Shown piece by piece: positions 16,714 to 61,400 of a DNA stretch of 64,000 nucleotides. The position numbers and the translations under genes were made by a program. The notes under the pieces were generated by a model that saw nothing but the letters and a program-made list of their open reading frames with translations, made no database searches and was not told where the DNA came from. Source of the stretch: Camelus ferus (lineage: Eukaryota); contig NC_045696.1 of assembly GCF_009834535.1 (NCBI RefSeq), forward strand, positions 26,352,001-26,416,000, in the 5' to 3' direction. Every line of letters begins with the position of its first letter. Positions within the stretch are counted from its first letter, which is position 1.

Positions 16714-19147
16714 GTGAGTGAGAGTCTTGACCACTTTTCTGAAATCTGTGAACTTCCCCATCTCTGATGGTCCTCAAAGATTTCCTTGCCTCTCTAGTTA
16801 TCAACATTGAATTTATTTTATGTCTGAAAGAGAGACTTAATTCTAAAATAAGTGTGAATCAGATATTCTAATATTCTTTTTTTCTAGTGTTAATTTTCTA
16901 AAATCATCATCTCACGTAGAATAGATACAATGCAGTGTAACTAAATTATCTGAAAAAGTCTAACCTGTTGCTGTTTAAAATCTCTTTAACAGAAAGGTAA
17001 GTTTGCTTTCTCACATTGCTCTACATTAAGATAATTAAGTGAGTTAGTATATAAAGCACTTAGAACACCCTGGGCATATGTAAAATAGTCAAAAATATTT
17101 CCATTATTAATTAGTCTAGAACCCAATTTCAACTTCCTTCCATAGACAAACAGTATAAATACCTTTTCTTTATCATTAATCCAAAAATGCTTCCTTTTAA
17201 GAGGAGAAATATTTTCTTCCATCATCCTTTCTGCATTCCCTCAGAGTGAGGTTATACAGGAAATAATACGTTACATACCAGATAGAACCGACACTTACCT
17301 TGTCTTGGCTGTGTGCTGGTTTGTCCTCTCAGGGCCCTCTCCGGGCAGCACAACCTCTCAGACTCTGCTAAAAAAGCAAATTGGGTACCATACTTTTCTC
17401 AGGTACAGCTTGGTCCAAACTTGGACAAGCACAGGCCTCCAGGTTCTGAAGCAGTGAGAGGAATTTCCAGCTTAAACCAGATCAAAAATTGAATTCTTTA
17501 TCTAAGAATGTATCTGTGCATTTCTGAGGGACCTAGAGATGTTTTTGTTCTAGACTTTCCAGAACCACCCCCGAAGAAGCATGTAGTTCTCGGGAAGAGG
17601 CCTGCTGGCGCTCCTCCTTGGCACCCTCTGTTGCTAGTCCACGTTCTGGAAGAATTTCCCAGGCGAAAAATGGGAACAGCAATTAAAAACCTCAGACAAT
17701 CTGAAAACTTCACCAGAGATTAAAATGCTTTCTACTAAATTAAGAGAACCTGTTGATCAAAACCTGTGTATGATTATTTGGGTAGAGAGGCATCAAGAAG
17801 TTCCCCTCGGCCATCATCTTTAATTGTTGTGCGTTCCTATACAGTTCTGTACCACCCTAAGCTAGCAGTTATATAACATCTCAGTATGGATGGGCTAATT
17901 ACCTTATTCCCTTCCTCGATGTTCCTTGTTGGATTCACTTCCCCTGTGATTTGTGGGATGTAAAGATAGTGATGGGAAAGATAAGGTAAAGTTCTGGCCA
18001 CTGCCTTATCCTACATCAGGACTGTTCCAGAACTTACTTGCCATCTTGTTTAGTCATTCAAAACTATAAAATAGATTTCTACTCGTAAGAGTTTCTTGAT
18101 TCTTCACTTAAAATTGCTTTCAGATTAAAAATGCTAAAGTGAGTGTAAAGAAACATGATACAGTTATAACACACTTGAACATACTCCCAACCCACATACA
18201 TAACCTGAAAAAGGAAAGAATTCTAAAGCCATTTTCCCTCCTTATGATTGTACAACCTTATAGCACAATTTAATGCACTGAAACTCATTTTCTTAATCTA
18301 AAATATGAGGCTAATACATTTTACTCCATGTAAGTTATGAAGATGACATGATTAAGTGAGTTTCTATGTAAAAGTGCTTTACACATTGTAAAGGTTAGAA
18401 ATGGGGAAAATGCAGAATGCACTTGCTTTCCCTTGTGTCCTGGCTGAAGTGGCAAGTTTGTGCTTCTGGTCGGGCTAGGGCTGCCAGGGCCAGAGATGTC
18501 CCTCTGCCTGAGCACAGAGGCTCGCTCGCTCAGCACTGCTCTGGTCACCTCCGTCCCCAGCCACACACAATGCTGAGAAGGCTGGAGGGCATGAACCTGG
18601 AGAGCCCTGGTAGCTCGGCAAGATTCTTCCTCCTGCCTGTAGTTCCTCCCCTCCACCCAGTCTGGGAGCTGTGAGGTCCAAGAAGTTTCTCCCTCAAACC
18701 ACAGACAGCATAATTATGCAAAGATGTTATTTATTTATAAATGATACAAATATAATTATGTAAGTAATTTGGTTGTTGCATATTTACACTTTAAAATACA
18801 AGTGTTGCATCAAATCCCATTCTAACATATCTTATCATATAGATAAAGCTACGTTGCATGTAAATCACATGTCCTAAAATAGCTCCAGGTTTATATATGC
18901 TATTGCATAAAATGTGTATTGGTCTTGTGGCCCAATAAACATGATTTTTAAAGATGCTACGTTGTGTTTTAATGGCTTTTAAACAAGGAATGTTCAAATA
19001 GCATTAAAGCCTTTTTTTTTTTCCTGTTATTTGACAAAATGGCAGATAATTCCAGAGATACTAATCTCTGGGAAGATTAGGTAATTTGATTTGATTATAA
19101 TCTTAGGTCTGGTTTTCTTTTCTTCACCTATCTCCCTCACATCAGAC

Positions 19148-19264
19148 AGAGGAAGAGAAGGAGGGAGAGAGGAAGAGAAGGAGGGAGAGAGGAAGGGAAG
19201 GAGAGAGGAAGAGAAGGAGGGAGAGAGGAAGGGAGGGAGAGAGGGAGGGAAGGAAGGAGAGGGA
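19148..19264. repeat. 117-nt pure purine tract built on a 20-bp GAGAGGAAGAGAAGGAGGGA unit
   Basis: Only A and G from 19148 to 19264. Explains the low-complexity ORF 19027..19287. Confidence 0.95.
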
Positions 19265-20979
19265 TAGGAGACTGTGAGTGAGAACAAAAGAGAAATGCTT
19301 GAGCAAATTGTAAATTTTCAAATCATGAATTGGGATATTAGGAAAAATAAATTGGTCTTACTGTCTGCAGTATCCAATTTTTACCATGATCTATGACTGT
19401 TCATCAGTAGAGAGAGTTAAGAGCCTGGACTTAATGGTCCATATTCCTCAATATGTGCTGATAATGCCAATTAGCACTAATAGGATACAGGCACTTCAAG
19501 GCAAGAAGAGCTCTGTGGAATTCCTGGGTTTTGCTTGTAATCCATTTTCTTTTGCCTGTGTCATACAAGCAGGGAATAAAGATGATGGGTTAACCTCAAT
19601 CATATGCCGTTTTCCATGTCAACGAATCATTTAGAAGGTGGACTGATAATACATTGTAGAGGAAGAGATCCCAGAGAGAATTAAGCCCATCTGATGTATT
19701 AGCGCTATGTAAATTAGTATTCTAATGGCTAATTGTAGGAAAGTGCACACTTTGAGTTATTGTATCATTTTCAAGTGGCTTTAAAATTTAGACCCTTCTC
19801 TTTAAGATGGTTTATTTCAGTAATATATTTGGATTCCACGGGAGAATTAGCTTGTTCTCAAATTGTGCTTCATATGTATGAAAAAGTCTAGACTTATATA
19901 TACTAATACAAATTTTATAGGGGGGGGCAATAGAATTTTGAAATTATATTCCTGACATGCTAGCAAACATCACTTCTTTTAGAAAGCATTTAATAACATG
20001 GTAATGTTTATGTAAAGTGGGCTTATAGTGTCCCACTTGAATCTAATAAAGTGGACATCCATCATGTTGCAATAAAGAGAAGAGCTTCTAATTAAAGTAG
20101 GACATCATTCTCAGGATTAAAGTCATTTGGTGTAATTGAAAAGTGTTAATACGCTATTTTATCCTCTTGCATTGGTATTACTTCAAGGGTAAAAACATTT
20201 TAAGGTGAAAATGTGTCTTATGCCTTTAATTGAATGTTATTACCTCCTGATTGTAACCTATTGAAACTGTTTAATTACAAACCTGGAAAATTAATTACTA
20301 TATTGAGAAACAGATCCCAGAGGGTTATAATGTTCTTTTTTTGTAAGTAAATACAACATAAAAATTGATATATCCTTATTTGTAATCCAACTTGGAAGCA
20401 TATCTCAATATGATTTATTATACACGAATGTTTTTCTTAATCGAACAACAGTAAAGCAACATAGGTCATCCAACTGAATGTTATTGCACTCCTACAAGAA
20501 CTTGCAAAATTTTGTGATTAGGCTACATGTATGTAATATGAGATATATATAGTAAACTAATGCATTTTTTTAATTTTAAAAGGGTAATAATATGAAATTT
20601 TTTATCAAATGCATACTTCAGAAACATCTCACATCTTTTTATTTTCAGTGATTCGGTTAATCTTGCTTAGATGGTAGCACTTCTACCTAGCTCCTTGCCT
20701 GTTACAACCTGCAGAAATCTCACAGCAGAAGTAGATTCAGCTGTCTCGGTGGCAGTGTCAGTTACACACACTTTTGAACATCTTTAGGAGAAATTCTGTT
20801 AATTACATAAAGTATGCAAAATGATCAGCAGAAAATATATTTTGCATTCTTTAGTAATATGCGGTTTACAAAACATAGTTAATGTTACATTCCAGATTCT
20901 CAAACATCTCATGAGTTGAGTCAGACAAGCATTATCATGCTTATTTTACAGATGAGGAAACCATATTTCAAAAATATTT

Positions 20980-56793: not shown

Positions 56794-56976
56794 GGGGACG
56801 AAATGAGGTTGTCATCACTGAAAACAATAACAGCATAACTGAGCAAATCACTGATGTTGTGAAGCAACCAGCCTTCATAGCTGGCATTGGTGGTGCCTGC
56901 TGGGTAATTCTGATGGGTTTTAGCATCTGGTTGTACTGGCGGAGAAAGAAGAGAAAGGGACTCAGTAATTACGCTG
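56794..56976 (+). CDS. ROBO2: ROBO2 exon (~17), stalk and transmembrane helix (~56871-56939): (G)[60 protein letters not shown]
   Basis: Acceptor gtttcttccacag, donor CTG|gtaaga, 183 nt, phase 1 to 1. A hydrophobic 23-mer is followed by basic RRKKRK. Confidence 0.97.
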
Positions 56977-57291: not shown

Positions 57292-58455
57292 TTTGCATGC
57301 TAGGAAACCATTGTGTGAAAAGTGGATTTAAGCAAGAACATTCCTAAAATGCTCTGAAAAAAAGAAAAGATTTGATATTTAGGGTTTTATTCTAATAATT
57401 TATGATACAAATTACAGTAGGAAATGTGTCTCAGATGGAAAATATACCAACAAGCAAAAAAAAAAAAAAAAAACTCACCAGAATTAATAAGACTGACAAG
57501 ACATGAATTTACTAGTCACTTAAATAGGATGTCTATTTCAAAGTAACCGATCAGTGTTTTAGAGGAAAAGGAGAAGCAAAAGAAGCAGAAAAAGAAGCTG
57601 CTACATGTTTTACTTGTTTGCAAAAATGTTTTCTTCTTAGAACCCATAATAGGAACTTGAAGGATGTCCAAAATTGTGGCTTTCAAGTACTTCCCAGGTA
57701 TAGAGAAAGAGAGAAAATTGTCAAATCAGTGATTGAAAAATGAACTCAAAACTGAAGCTATGCTCAATTACAATTTAAATTGCAATGCATTTTAAGAATT
57801 TTCTCTAATAACAATGATCATACAAAGAAATTGTCTCACAATATTTCACATTTTCTAGAATCTGCAAGGGAACAATTTTAACTTACCATTGTCCTACAAA
57901 TATTTTACAATTTTTGAGACATTTTATTCAGTCATCTGTTTCTAATTTTAACTTTGTAAGAAGTATAAATGTCTTAAGTGATTTTTTGACAGAGGCTTCA
58001 TTGCTTATTAAGCTTACCGGCTGATGTAGCTTTTAGGCTTGTAAGCTTCTGAGAATGTCTAGTGTAAAATGAAAGGAATTAACACCCACTTGGTTGTCTT
58101 GCTTGTTATTTGACAGTATTTAAATATGATCATTTGACTATCACATTGTGGCTCCTGTCTCTCTGTCTTGTGAAAATACAGTTTATTAGTTACTGGTTAG
58201 AATAAATTCCCAGGACTGGAGAAAGCAATGTAGTGTTTCCATTGAAAAGGGGCTTCCATGCTTTGTGACTTGCTATTGCTCTGCCATTCTCATTTCTCAT
58301 TGGCTACTGATGCCTGCTGCCTTACACTTTGTCATCCGGGTGCTGTGTCACCTACCAGTGAGGGATTCTTCCCGGAACGTGTTGCTGGACAGTAACTGCC
58401 GAGTGTCAGAGTCTTGCAAGTTAATGATGCTTTAACCTAACCTCTTGTTTTGCAG

Positions 58456-58484
58456 TCCTGTCCTCTACTTTCATCCCCCTAAAG
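58456..58484 (+). other. ROBO2: Candidate 29-nt frameshifting (fossil or poison) microexon of ROBO2
   Basis: tttaacctaac branch motifs, ctcttgttttgcag acceptor, AAG|gtatag donor. Reads VLSSTFIPLK in frame with the TM exon, similar to the recalled ROBO1 VPSFTFTPT exon. Confidence 0.55.
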
Positions 58485-61400
58485 GTATAGTCCATCAACC
58501 TGTCTAGTCAATCACTATGTTCCATTTCATCTCTGTGACACACTCATGTAAATCATATAAAAAATAAGAGACCTGATTTAATTCAAGGACTATTTTGTGT
58601 TAATCTCTTTGCTTGACTTTAGTGAAAGTAATGAAAAGCTGACCATGCTAGTCACTTCAGTCAGTGCAAAGTTCTAAGATACCACATTTGTAGTGGTGTA
58701 CTTTTACCCTCCATACCTTTCCATTCTCTCACTCCTTCGAATTAGCATAGCTCTTGTAATTAGTTGGCTTGTGTTTTTAGTAAAAAATATATCACACAGC
58801 CTTCTTTTTCTTCTTTTTATTTTAAAACAGCAGTTCTTTACAAAACCTGTGATTTAATTTGAAAATAGCTATAGGTCTTTGAGCTTGACAAGAATAATAC
58901 ATTTCCTATGATCATTTCTCATTGTGATTGATACCCATCTGCTTGTAGAAGAACTGCTAACTCAGAAGTGCTGTGCCCTTCAAATATTTTGGAATAAGGC
59001 CAAGCCAGAGAGCAGCCTTTCTAAACCTTTATACTTAATTGATAGATGGCTGACTCTCAGAATGGCTTCACCTTCAGCTAATAATTTGCCTTCCAGCAAC
59101 TGCTGTTCAACTCTAGGTGAGAAGCAACTGAAAATCCAAACCACCAGGACTTACCATTGTATATTTGATTTGGTGATATTGTCTACATATTTCACTTCAT
59201 AAATATCCTACCCTCCACCTTTTAAAATTTTTATATTCTTGTCTTTATACAACTTAGAGGATATGAGCATTTTAAATAGGAATGATTGGTGTAGTATGTA
59301 TTGGCCATATGTTTAAATTTCTGACATTTCATGCGTGAGCTAATGATCCATTTTGAGAGCACAGAGATTCTGTACAGGGCTATTTTTCCCAGAATTGTTT
59401 CATGAAAATTTTAGAGAAAATATTCTATGTGTACTGGTTCTGTTTATATTTTAGTTTCCATAAAAATTTCTCTGAGAATCTTATACTTTAACAAGTAACG
59501 AAAAACTGAACTCAGTAAAGTTAAAGCAATGTGATTTTACTCACAAAAATGAAAAGTCTAATATTTCCACTTTTTACTACATGGTAATATCTATATAATC
59601 TCAAAATGTTATTATTGATCTATGATAACAATAATCTTTTTTTTTCAAATAAACAAAAGTCTACTTTGGGATCAGTATTTAAATTAATTTGTACCAAAAG
59701 ATGCCTTCATTTATGTCAAACCCCAAGTGTGATCTTTGAATTATACTTAAACATCTGATGCATTTTATATGTATGAAGAAACATACATTGTATTAATGCT
59801 AGACTGATCCAAAGTAGAATTGTAAAGCAGGCAAAATTTCATTTCATCATTTTCTTTTTCCTGCTTCATTCCAAGTCTTCTTAACCACCATAGGTAGATT
59901 TGAACCACCAAAGGGAAGATTTTAACTAGTGGGAAGATATAGAAATACCTTGCAGGGTACAGACTCCAACTCCCAGCAGGATGCCTTTCATTCACTCTAT
60001 TTAGGCAAAAAATTACACACTGACTTTTACTGTGGCTGGTCCCCGTAATGTGGAAAATTATATTTGACTGCTTAGAAGAAAGGTTAAAAAAAAAATGCTA
60101 CTCAGTGCTGATATTTTTTTAATGTGTCAGAGGATTTAACATATTTATCAAAGAACACTAGTGGATTAACACCTCAGATTGTAAAAGCAACTATCAAGAA
60201 TCAAATGTAAACTTACACACTTAAATGATCTGAGAGAATTTGGCCTGAATGTGTTTTGCTTCTTTACACAGCAGAAAATGGAGATTTCCCTAAGGCAAAG
60301 TTATACACTAACTTCCTATTCACTTTTTTTCTATTTCTTCTTTATTTAAATTCTTCAGACACAAACACGCACCACAAGTTTGCACGTGGCTCAGAGAAGG
60401 GCAGCTGGGACGAGAAAGGTATCCTTATAGCTCATATTCTACGTGAAATCATTTTATCCTTTTCCAGAGCAACATGCAATGTTATTTATTTTAATCCTCA
60501 CTGAGCACTAACAGTCTGTTTGTCACTATTTGGGGTTCCTGACTGCCAGAATTCACTACCTGAGTAGTTAAAGGGTGAAACAGAATTGCAAAGGCATTTG
60601 GGCAGAAGATACAGGAAATACTAGGTGATTTTTGAATGGAGAGTGAATGTTTCATCATATGTGTAACAGTGTTTGTGAACAGAAAAATGAGCAACATGTT
60701 TGAATAAGAGCCATGCAGCTTTCATGAGGCGTCTGTAGATTGTGTTATAATCTTCTCGAAGGCCACATGACTCTTCAAACTCATGCTGTTCGTATTTCTG
60801 TTCATAATTTTTTAAGTCATCATCTTTTTAATGAAAGTAAACATATTTTCACTTTTAAAGGGATGACTTCTATTTTATGAACATTGCTTCTGAGGATAAC
60901 AGATATCATTCAACTCAGTGAATATAAATAATTTAACGAGTGAGCAAATTATGAGATACCAAACACTTCATTGCATGCGTTTTAAACCATTGGTGAAATT
61001 ATTGGACAAAACTACCCTAAGACAACTAAAAGATTTGATGGAATTTTTATACTCTGATTATCTAGGCTTGAGTTAATGCGTATTAAAAGAGGATTAATCT
61101 ACATTCATATTTGAGAAATAGCTTATCAGGAAAGGGAATGAGGCTTGGCTGGCAACATTAAAGTTTCCATTTGGAGTAGGAAAATGTGGCTTACTAGAGA
61201 TAGGCACTCTGAAAGCTTCCTTACCTCAAAATGTCAATTTACCACATAGTTTTGTTTCTCTTCCCCCTCAATTCTAGCAGGCATGAGATTAGGATTAATC
61301 CTGTCAGATAATATTAGAGGTACTTTGTGTATGATATGAACTTGCAAAATCTCTTTACCTTACGTTTTTCATAAATATTGCAATAAATTCAAAATATTTA

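Follow-up and report, generated by a model that had tools for sequence, protein, structure and literature searches.

Neural microexons under SRRM4 or NOVA control are at most about 27 to 30 nt long and have UGC near the acceptor and/or flanking YCAY clusters; a YCAY cluster and an acceptor-adjacent TGC are both features of regulated neural exons. Many poison exons are ultraconserved, and under the NMD rule a transcript is degraded if translation stops prematurely and a later exon junction lies more than about 50 nt past the stop. Isoforms of zebrafish and rat Robo2 were reportedly the subject of a 2006 paper. Splice isoforms of ROBO1 and ROBO2 alter axon repulsion, as stated for exon 6b and for Robo2 exon 21 in the accessible part of PMC6687390. 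According to the same part of that source, microexon 6b is a tiny, NOVA-regulated alternative exon common to both paralogues; it lies in the extracellular Ig3-Ig4 linker, is repressed by NOVA, preserves the frame, and is conserved in mammals. In two other papers (PMC12871342 and PMC7821500), the only mention is of the 6b microexon paper. A different site is occupied by the exon numbered 18 in the table of mouse RT-PCR primers in PMC6687390, an exon that corresponds to the 27-nt juxtamembrane alternative exon of ROBO1, encoding VPSFTFTPT. In that table the alternative exons are 6b, 18, and 21 for Robo1 and only 6b, 21, 24b, and 26 for Robo2. The family also holds a precedent for control by NMD, ROBO3.2, which belongs to the same receptor family as ROBO2 (PMC13542418, as far as its accessible part goes).

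Here, we analyzed a 64,000-nt stretch of the Camelus ferus genome (the window), in which the ROBO2 intron after the TM exon contains a 29-nt segment related to the ROBO1 juxtamembrane microexon. The segment differs from microexon 6b in being juxtamembrane. As in poison exons, the premature stop that its hypothetical inclusion would bring into the message lies well upstream of later junctions.

Anatomy of the segment and its intron

The intron after the ROBO2 TM exon is 8411 nt long, and the AG...GT segment begins 1479 nt into it (Table 1). Identity of the TM exon to a ground-squirrel ROBO2 record (P0278) is 100% over 61 residues. The elements listed in the original prediction (TM exon, branch motifs, acceptor, 29-mer, gtatag, and the reading VLSSTFIPLK) are all present, the last being the translation of the phase-1 G joined to the 29-mer. 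Candidate branch adenines lie at 58435 (-21) in TTTAAC and at 58440 (-16) in CCTAAC.

Table 1. Features of the ROBO2 juxtamembrane intron region (positions in the window)
Feature	Position	Strand	Detail or basis
ROBO2 TM exon	56794..56976	+	Ends ...GLSNYA plus one G (phase 1)
TM-exon donor gtaaga	starts 56977	+	
G+C-richer single-copy island	58230..58484	+	Ends at the remnant; 47.5% GC, 4 CpG
Two branch-point-like motifs, TTTAAC and CCTAAC	58431..58441	+	Putative; read from sequence
Pyrimidine tract and acceptor ctcttgttttgcag	58442..58455	+	TGC at -5..-3 adjoins AG
29-nt remnant of ROBO juxtamembrane microexon, TCCTGTCCTCTACTTTCATCCCCCTAAAG	58456..58484	+	Homology and frame analyses
Donor-like GTATAG	58485..58490	+	AAG/GTATAG, 6/9 consensus positions
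YCAY cluster	58485..58564	+	Motif count; 6 motifs in the 80 nt 3' of the donor

All of the splice signals are preserved, and in quality they do not fall below those of the functioning ROBO1 microexon or of the constitutive next ROBO2 exon. Pyrimidines occupy 13 of the 17 positions from -20 to -4 of the acceptor, the same count as in the ROBO1 microexon and inside the range of 9 to 15 found in nine real exons. The donor had been called weak in the original prediction; the argument built on that weakness loses force, as GTATA-type donors also serve the ROBO1 microexon of the same genome (CAG/GTATAT, 7/9 consensus positions) and the constitutive next ROBO2 exon (AAG/GTATAC, 6/9).

By themselves, these signals are no more than chance provides, whereas the sequence match described below is more than chance. 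The plus strand of the window contains 56 comparable pseudo-microexons (AG...GT segments of 3 to 30 nt whose pyrimidine tract and donor equal or exceed those of the segment), and the window's part of the intron accounts for 15 of these. Equally good splice signals are thus common in the window, and homology is what distinguishes the segment at 58456-58484.

Two features of the surrounding intron stand out from its background. YCAY motifs average 1.34 per 80 nt across the window, and six or more occur in 0.4% of 80-nt windows (six motifs are reached in 6 of 799 nonoverlapping windows, in a test chosen post hoc); the cluster behind the donor may be a NOVA-type site or a product of chance. The corresponding 80 nt 3' of the ROBO1 microexon contain no YCAY, against six after the ROBO2 segment. 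Upstream, the island closed by the segment contrasts with an intron mean of 33.1% GC and is equaled in GC content by 0.8% of 2345 intronic windows, which could be a mark of constraint. A repeat origin was rejected for the island because it occurs once in the genome.

Counterparts in ROBO1 and in non-mammal ROBO2

The ROBO1 exon cited in the original prediction exists in the same genome: it is 27 nt long (TCCCGTCTTTTACCTTCACACCAACAG), encodes VPSFTFTPT, and is flanked by the ROBO1 TM exon and the VTYQRGG exon. Like the ROBO2 segment, it occupies the first exon position after the TM exon and is entered in phase 1. Its first 22 nt have their single best match in the window at 58456, with 16 of 22 identical, and five of the first eight residues agree, as had been stated. 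A gapped alignment of the two loci spans the pyrimidine tract, which is comparable in the two, and the acceptor, through to the GGTATA donor found in both. This alignment, proposed as a check on the original prediction, scores 34 against a control mean of 15.7 (standard deviation, 2.2), and none of the controls (up to 2000 random ROBO1 pieces and 2000 shuffles) reaches 34. The two exons differ in that the ROBO1 exon is intact and in frame in this genome, whereas the ROBO2 copy shifts the frame. The preceding exons differ also, the ROBO1 TM exon gaining 12 extra nucleotides (GIRK) by way of a second, stacked donor. The intron sequences on either side of the exon showed no significant similarity between ROBO1 and ROBO2 (upstream, 0.077; downstream, 0.76) and therefore give no ground for a common regulatory element.

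A closer counterpart is found in ROBO2 itself. At the same junction, NYA-VQSFTFTPA-VTFQ is read in at least 126 of the ROBO2 records listed for non-mammals, which range from shark to birds, with frogs, lizards, turtles, and ray-finned fishes (teleosts and bichir) among the carriers. The insert was present in 6 of the 120 proteins of a first listing and in all 120 of a second (116 new, 4 already counted), each row being a cluster representative; at least 122 distinct sequences carry the peptide, which is invariant among the matches listed. The exon is alternative in non-mammals, because a single turtle has records both with the insert (P0025 and P0038) and without it (P0024 and P0030). The original prediction had made homology depend on an in-frame orthologous exon in some vertebrate ROBO2, and it survives because non-mammals have one. 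Its view of the segment as ROBO2's version of a juxtamembrane microexon already present in the ancestor, longer by 2 nt than the 27-nt form, is supported by matches beyond chance to both this ortholog and the ROBO1 exon.

The non-mammal 27-nt exon has its gene and junction in common with the segment, and the segment is its only match in the window. Back-translated as a degenerate pattern, VQSFTFT(P) matches once on the two strands (128 kb), at 58456, with 0.38 matches expected. With up to three mismatches allowed, 58456-58477 on the plus strand is still the only match in the window, and the next-best intron site has four. Of the 21 nucleotide positions specified by the back-translated VQSFTFTPA pattern, 15 are kept and 6 differ. 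At the protein level VLSSTFIPL retains five of nine residues and has four changed. The non-mammal exon preserves the frame and is protein invariant (at least 122 sequences), while the window copy shows Q>L, F>S, and T>I, a rearranged 3' end, and 2 extra nt, the comparison being with a back-translation only. As a member of the ROBO juxtamembrane microexons, the segment thus has the intron, strand, phase-1 entry, and above-chance similarity, but it has neither the 27-nt frame-preserving length nor the V-x-S-F-T-F-T-P-x motif, in which F4 and T7 are replaced.

In mammals the insert was absent from every mammal-named ROBO2 record among the matches listed and from the cluster members examined, consistent with the earlier statement that mammalian ROBO2 usually passes straight from NYA to VTFQ. 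A directly joined NYA-VTFQ was found in 95 of 120 matches listed (about 50 of them mammals by record name). The insert occurred in none of 30 junction-bearing members of the mammal clusters (41 members fetched) and in none of 19 marsupial ROBO2 records from eight species. No opossum appeared among the matches listed for the insert query, where an insert-bearing opossum would match at 100% identity. That protein records lack the insert is weak evidence: isoforms that break the frame are seldom reported by gene predictors, each listing covers at most 120 matches, and rows are cluster representatives. Metagenome scans with a merged ROBO1/ROBO2 pattern and with an exact 22-nt core returned no stretches, which says little because host DNA is rare there.

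Inclusion, decay, and possible use

The length of 29 nt, rather than 27, means that inclusion would shift the frame, as had been foreseen. A stop would then follow 19 codons past the TM exon, at nt 28 to 30 of the 43-nt next exon. Other splice sites nearby do not rescue the frame: none of 80 AG and GT combinations (8 by 10) gives an in-frame, stop-free insert. Further ROBO2 exons follow the 43-nt exon, which puts more than 50 nt between the stop and later junctions downstream of it, the arrangement expected of a poison exon; a transcript that included the segment is predicted to be NMD prone. Four RNA-Seq runs contain 0.16 to 0.42 of the sampled words, above what the TM exon alone could give, which points to pre-mRNA or DNA carry-over and is silent on junctions.

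We favor, with moderate confidence, the reading of 58456-58484 as a decayed relic of an ancient ROBO2 microexon, probably dead, and not a new regulatory switch. The ancestor of ROBO1 and ROBO2 would have had an alternative microexon just after the TM exon, which ROBO1 retains as 27 nt (VPSFTFTPT) and the ROBO2 of non-mammal jawed vertebrates as 27 nt (VQSFTFTPA). The copy in this mammal would have lost its coding role, being 29 nt long with four of nine residues changed and no frame-restoring AG or GT. Normal ROBO2 mRNA would pass from NYA to VTFQ, skipping the remnant. With the AG, the pyrimidine tract, and the GTATA-type donor still intact, it is conceivable that the remnant is included now and then; whenever it was, the result would be the early stop and an NMD-prone transcript, and we judge such inclusion to be unproductive noise, not a maintained function. 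The original prediction had kept a dead relic as its fallback, and this is the option favored by four differences in nine residues from an otherwise invariant peptide together with the 2-nt change in length. We infer both the skipping of the remnant in this species and the neutrality of its decay. Divergence of about 29% at the specified sites would be compatible with neutral decay since early mammals, although, with 21 such sites only, recent loss or partial constraint could match it equally well.

Several observations run against a relic: the intact splice signals, the YCAY cluster in the 0.4% tail, the TGC at the acceptor, and the GC island in the 0.8% tail.

The same observations enter into a reading that is possible but rather unlikely, namely a regulated poison microexon: mammals would have turned the old coding exon into a frame-shifting cassette whose inclusion, promoted by NOVA and/or SRRM4, would tune ROBO2 level through NMD. 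Its acceptor AG, pyrimidine tract, both branch motifs, and the GTATA donor are preserved, the stop falls in the 43-nt exon with ROBO2 exons further downstream, a YCAY cluster follows and a GC-rich single-copy island precedes it, and ROBO3.2 offers the family precedent cited above. Of the properties of SRRM4 or NOVA microexons, the segment has the size, the TGC near the acceptor, and flanking YCAY motifs (a post hoc comparison); it does not preserve the frame and its peptide has diverged, whereas such exons are frame preserving and highly conserved. Moreover, the exon body has drifted at an approximately neutral rate and is not ultraconserved, 56 pseudo-exons in the window have equal signals, and the motif tests were chosen post hoc. 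Neither a ROBO2 poison exon nor a description of the remnant, including by the peptide string SFTFTP, was found in the literature searched, in the parts of the sources that were accessible.

It is doubtful, though conceivable, that a mammalian gain of 2 nt re-purposed the microexon as a NOVA- or SRRM4-responsive frame-shifting switch, giving either NMD-lowered ROBO2 or a tail-less SLIT-binding receptor. Such a switch could act in axon guidance or in the developing kidney, at specific stages of either, in an exon that has been invariant for about 450 million years in other jawed vertebrates.

A tail-less decoy in particular, a stable protein composed of the full ectodomain, the TM helix, and a 31-residue stub (12 native and 19 new residues) that binds SLIT without signaling, is very unlikely. 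After inclusion the frame would continue for 19 codons beyond the TM exon before the stop, and the ectodomain and TM exons are intact. However, the last exon junction is a long way downstream of the stop, so that decay is expected and not translation; the 30 junction-bearing mammal cluster members have no insert after NYA, and the short human and ape records in those clusters end upstream of the TM exon.

An equally slight probability attaches to a fortuitous pseudo-exon, in which, within a long intron rich in A+T, one AG...GT pair would happen to resemble a ROBO microexon. The signals alone are unremarkable, 32 of 100 shuffles of the 128 kb contain a match to the degenerate pattern, and the flanks past the splice sites are without significant ROBO1 similarity. 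Yet the sole match falls in the right intron, strand, and phase, directly after an AG; simulated introns of the same length yield 0.0225 matches each, and none of nine simulated matches directly follows AG. Independently, no other site in the window matches the ROBO1 exon as well as the segment does, and every control falls short of the joint alignment.

Least probable of all is an assembly error, with a coding exon of 27 nt to which homopolymer miscalls (C5 and A3) added two bases: C5 and A3 runs do adjoin the extra length, and the large contigs suggest a homopolymer-error-prone long-read assembly, but deleting one C and one A yields an in-frame TAA, three of the first eight codons would still differ from a peptide invariant in at least 122 distinct sequences, six further runs (type unrecorded, not marked as RNA) contain 0.92 to 0.93 of the sampled words of the stretch (a stretch-wide sampling), and the insert is in no mammal record examined.

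Implications for ROBO2

The new elements are a ROBO2 counterpart of the ROBO1 juxtamembrane microexon, invariant from shark to birds among the matches listed; the absence of this counterpart from every examined mammal-named record; and a recognizable, frame-broken remnant that persists with intact splice signals in a mammalian intron. Should the remnant be no more than a relic, it would illustrate cleanly how a microexon can die in one lineage. It would also be a caution for exon predictors and for the clinical reading of ROBO2 variants deep in introns, since any change that strengthened the pseudo-exon would lead to a truncated receptor. Actual use of the remnant would instead amount to a new means of tuning ROBO2 dosage.

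The ROBO2 juxtamembrane junction across vertebrates

We searched protein records with the translation of the ROBO2 transmembrane (TM) exon and classed the junctions in the best 120 of 2267 matches. The TM exon end (NYA) was joined directly to the start of the next exon (VTFQ) in 95 of these records; 6 read NYA-VQSFTFTPA-VTFQ (two turtle species in three records, crane, swift, and Xenopus laevis), 15 continued past NYA with intron sequence, 3 skipped the next exons, and 1 duplicated the TM exon. A second search, centered on the insert, returned 1660 matches, and all of the best 120 contained it (116 new records plus 4 from the first search). These listed matches span frogs, lizards, turtles, birds, ray-finned fishes (teleosts and bichir), and a shark. 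The nine residues VQSFTFTPA did not vary in any insert-bearing record. The non-mammal exon is alternative, because one turtle has isoforms both including and omitting it. ROBO2 thus does have an in-frame microexon at the junction of the TM and next exons, of 27 nt judging from its nine residues, and the supposed counterpart of the ROBO1 exon does exist at the same junction in non-mammals. In the record pair P0104/P0002, a swift isoform has 15 extra residues between VQSFTFTPA and VTFQ, and a white-eye (Zosterops) record contains the TM exon twice; flaws in gene models or assembly probably account for both.

No mammal-named ROBO2 record among those examined has the insert. Judged by names, ~50 of the 95 direct records are mammalian (rodents, cetaceans, deer, rhinoceros, squirrel, and marsupials), and narwhal and camel are among the 3 records that skip the next exons. 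These protein rows are cluster representatives, the best 120 per search, and gene predictors seldom output frame-breaking isoforms. Among 41 cluster members fetched, 11 stop short of the junction and the remaining 30, which include rodents, apes and human, tree shrew, dolphins, yak, and muntjac, are all direct, as are 19/19 marsupial records from eight species, including isoforms of 1550 to 1577 residues. These records agree with the usual mammalian passage from NYA to VTFQ. An intact opossum insert would match the insert query at 100% identity; no opossum was found in the best 120 of 1660. In the 3 skipping records noted above (narwhal, finch, and camel; P0020, P0021, and P0060) NYA runs straight to DVLPPVPGQG, through either true exon skipping or gene-model gaps. 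For Robo2, the primer table of a mouse study (PMC6687390) covers exons 6b, 21, 24b, and 26, with no counterpart of Robo1 exon 18.

The camel segment and its likeness to both microexons

On its + strand, the window includes eleven ROBO2 exons, Ig4 through TM, with 91 to 100% identity to a ground-squirrel ROBO2 record. The next coding exon falls outside the window, and its window-equivalent position makes the intron after the TM exon 8411 nt long. The branch motifs, acceptor, 29-mer, and gtatag of the original prediction are all present, exactly as listed, 1479 nt into it. Elsewhere, in the intron that follows the Ig4 exon, positions 19085-19278 hold a purine-rich simple repeat with three open frames (translations are REGGREEGKERG-like).

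Features around the ROBO2 segment and the ROBO1 microexon (window positions; window-equivalent numbering continues past the window end)
Feature	Position	Strand	Details
ROBO2 TM exon	56794-56976	+	ends ...NYA plus one G (phase 1); donor gtaaga
Branch motifs TTTAAC, CCTAAC	before candidate acceptor		branch A at -21 and -16
Candidate acceptor ctcttgttttgcag	directly before 58456	+	
29-mer TCCTGTCCTCTACTTTCATCCCCCTAAAG	58456-58484	+	followed by gtatag
Next ROBO2 coding exon VTFQRGDGGLMSNG	window-equivalent 65388-65430 (L008:1388-1430, same genome), beyond window		43 nt
ROBO1 microexon ...gatttttcag/TCCCGTCTTTTACCTTCACACCAACAG/gtatat	between TM exon (...STYAGIRK) and VTYQRGG exon		27 nt; VPSFTFTPT

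ROBO1 lies in the same genome (2.09 Gb), ~0.85 Mb from the window on the same contig and opposite strand, and its microexon, cited in the original prediction, proved real. The first 22 nt of that exon have a single best window match, 16/22 at 58456 (+), with a maximum of 15 elsewhere. A local alignment of ROBO1 and ROBO2 spans the end of the pyrimidine tract and the exon up to GGTATA with one 2-nt gap, and its mismatches are, as had been proposed, mostly C/T. Its score is 34, whereas random ROBO1 pieces average 15.7 ± 2.2, and none of up to 2000 such pieces scored and 2000 shuffles reached 34. For the exon by itself the alignment is weaker (0.014), and neither flank by itself shows significant likeness (0.077 upstream, 0.76 downstream). 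At the ROBO1 TM exon end (~27258950-27258975, minus strand of the window's contig), GCAG/GTATCAGAAAAG/gtattt holds a pair of stacked GT donors separated by 12 nt, so that the GIRK residues would be optional; only the upstream-equivalent donor (GCTG/gtaaga) serves in ROBO2. The PMC6687390 primer table states that a mouse Robo1 "exon 18" amplicon "amplifies multiple isoforms," and, going by their sequences, we place its primers in the TM exon and the one after it.

For the non-mammal exon we compared a back-translation rather than orthologous DNA. Two metagenome scans, one with a merged ROBO1/ROBO2 pattern and one with a 22-nt exact core, gave 0 stretches, which carries little weight because host DNA is scarce in such collections. 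Allowing ≤3 mismatches to the first eight codons of VQSFTFTPA, the only match on both strands of the whole window is 58456-58477 (+), with 0.38 expected; the next-best site in the intron has 4 mismatches. Chance resemblance has in its favor that 32/100 shuffles contained at least one match somewhere. Against it, 400 intron lengths simulated with a first-order Markov model held 9 matches (0.0225 per intron), 0 directly after AG, and we consider chance very improbable. The full 27-nt pattern found no match at 3 mismatches, because the 3′ end of the copy is altered. Together with the ROBO1 match, the single hit makes it very likely that the segment is homologous to the ROBO microexon, as the ROBO2 copy of the ancestral exon originally envisaged.

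Splice signals, decay, and predicted effect of inclusion

We scored splice signals by pyrimidines at -20..-4 and matches to MAG/GTRAGT. The candidate has 13 and 6, similar to the 13 and 7 of the ROBO1 microexon, and nine real exons span 9 to 15 and 6 to 9. These signals alone prove nothing and are not beyond chance, since 56 AG...GT segments of 3 to 30 nt on the window + strand, 15 of them in the part of the intron present, score at least as high. The donor had been called weak, which is not much of an argument against use, since its GTATA type also serves the ROBO1 microexon (CAG/GTATAT) and the next ROBO2 exon, which is constitutive (AAG/GTATAC). GTATA-type donors recur in the TM-adjacent part of both genes, and the 43-nt next exon has a 15/17 pyrimidine tract.

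The copy is 29 nt long, against 27 nt in the microexon, and retains 15/21 specified nucleotide positions (hand count). With the phase-1 G it translates as VLSSTFIPLK, keeping 5/9 residues of VQSFTFTPA (the changes are Q>L, F>S, and T>I, and the end is rearranged). No in-frame, stop-free insert was found among 8 AG × 10 GT sites around it. Inclusion would give ...NYA-VLSSTFIPLK and then nine out-of-frame residues, with a stop at nt 28-30 of the next exon, 19 codons past the TM exon, in keeping with the frame shift foreseen. A premature stop upstream of later exons usually predicts nonsense-mediated decay (NMD), and with further exons downstream inclusion is predicted to cause it.

Remnant or maintained exon

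The changed residues and frame shift favor a nonfunctional remnant, which we regard as the probable state of the copy. At general substitution rates, neutral drift from early therian mammals onward would produce roughly the divergence seen (~29% of specified sites, and an indel), with a wide interval from 21 sites, and chance retention of the AG and GT dinucleotides through so long a period is not improbable.

A maintained poison exon is a doubtful second reading. The 80 nt that follow the donor-like GT (58485-58564) contain six YCAY motifs (window mean, 1.34), a count reached in 0.4% of 80-nt windows overall and in 6/799 non-overlapping ones; the equivalent place downstream of the ROBO1 microexon, in contrast, has 0. 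TGC adjoins the acceptor. A single-copy stretch ending at the remnant (58230-58484) has 47.5% GC and 4 CpG against an intron mean of 33.1%, a GC level that 0.8% of 2345 intronic windows attain, and may be a conserved noncoding element. These features sit awkwardly with the plain dead relic that the original prediction allowed for; they could be old regulatory traces, present constraint, or post hoc coincidence. The GC-rich stretch also overlaps an open frame of 81 codons (58190-58432), which runs in a different reading frame. A decoy protein and an assembly error are each most unlikely.

A 2006 paper reportedly describes zebrafish and rat Robo2 isoforms with an alternative exon that may be the present microexon. 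The exons of the two genes fit a microexon older than the ROBO1/ROBO2 split. Its peptide is frozen in all the other jawed vertebrates sampled and here has 4/9 residues changed and is frame-shifted, so that coding constraint on the camel copy is gone.
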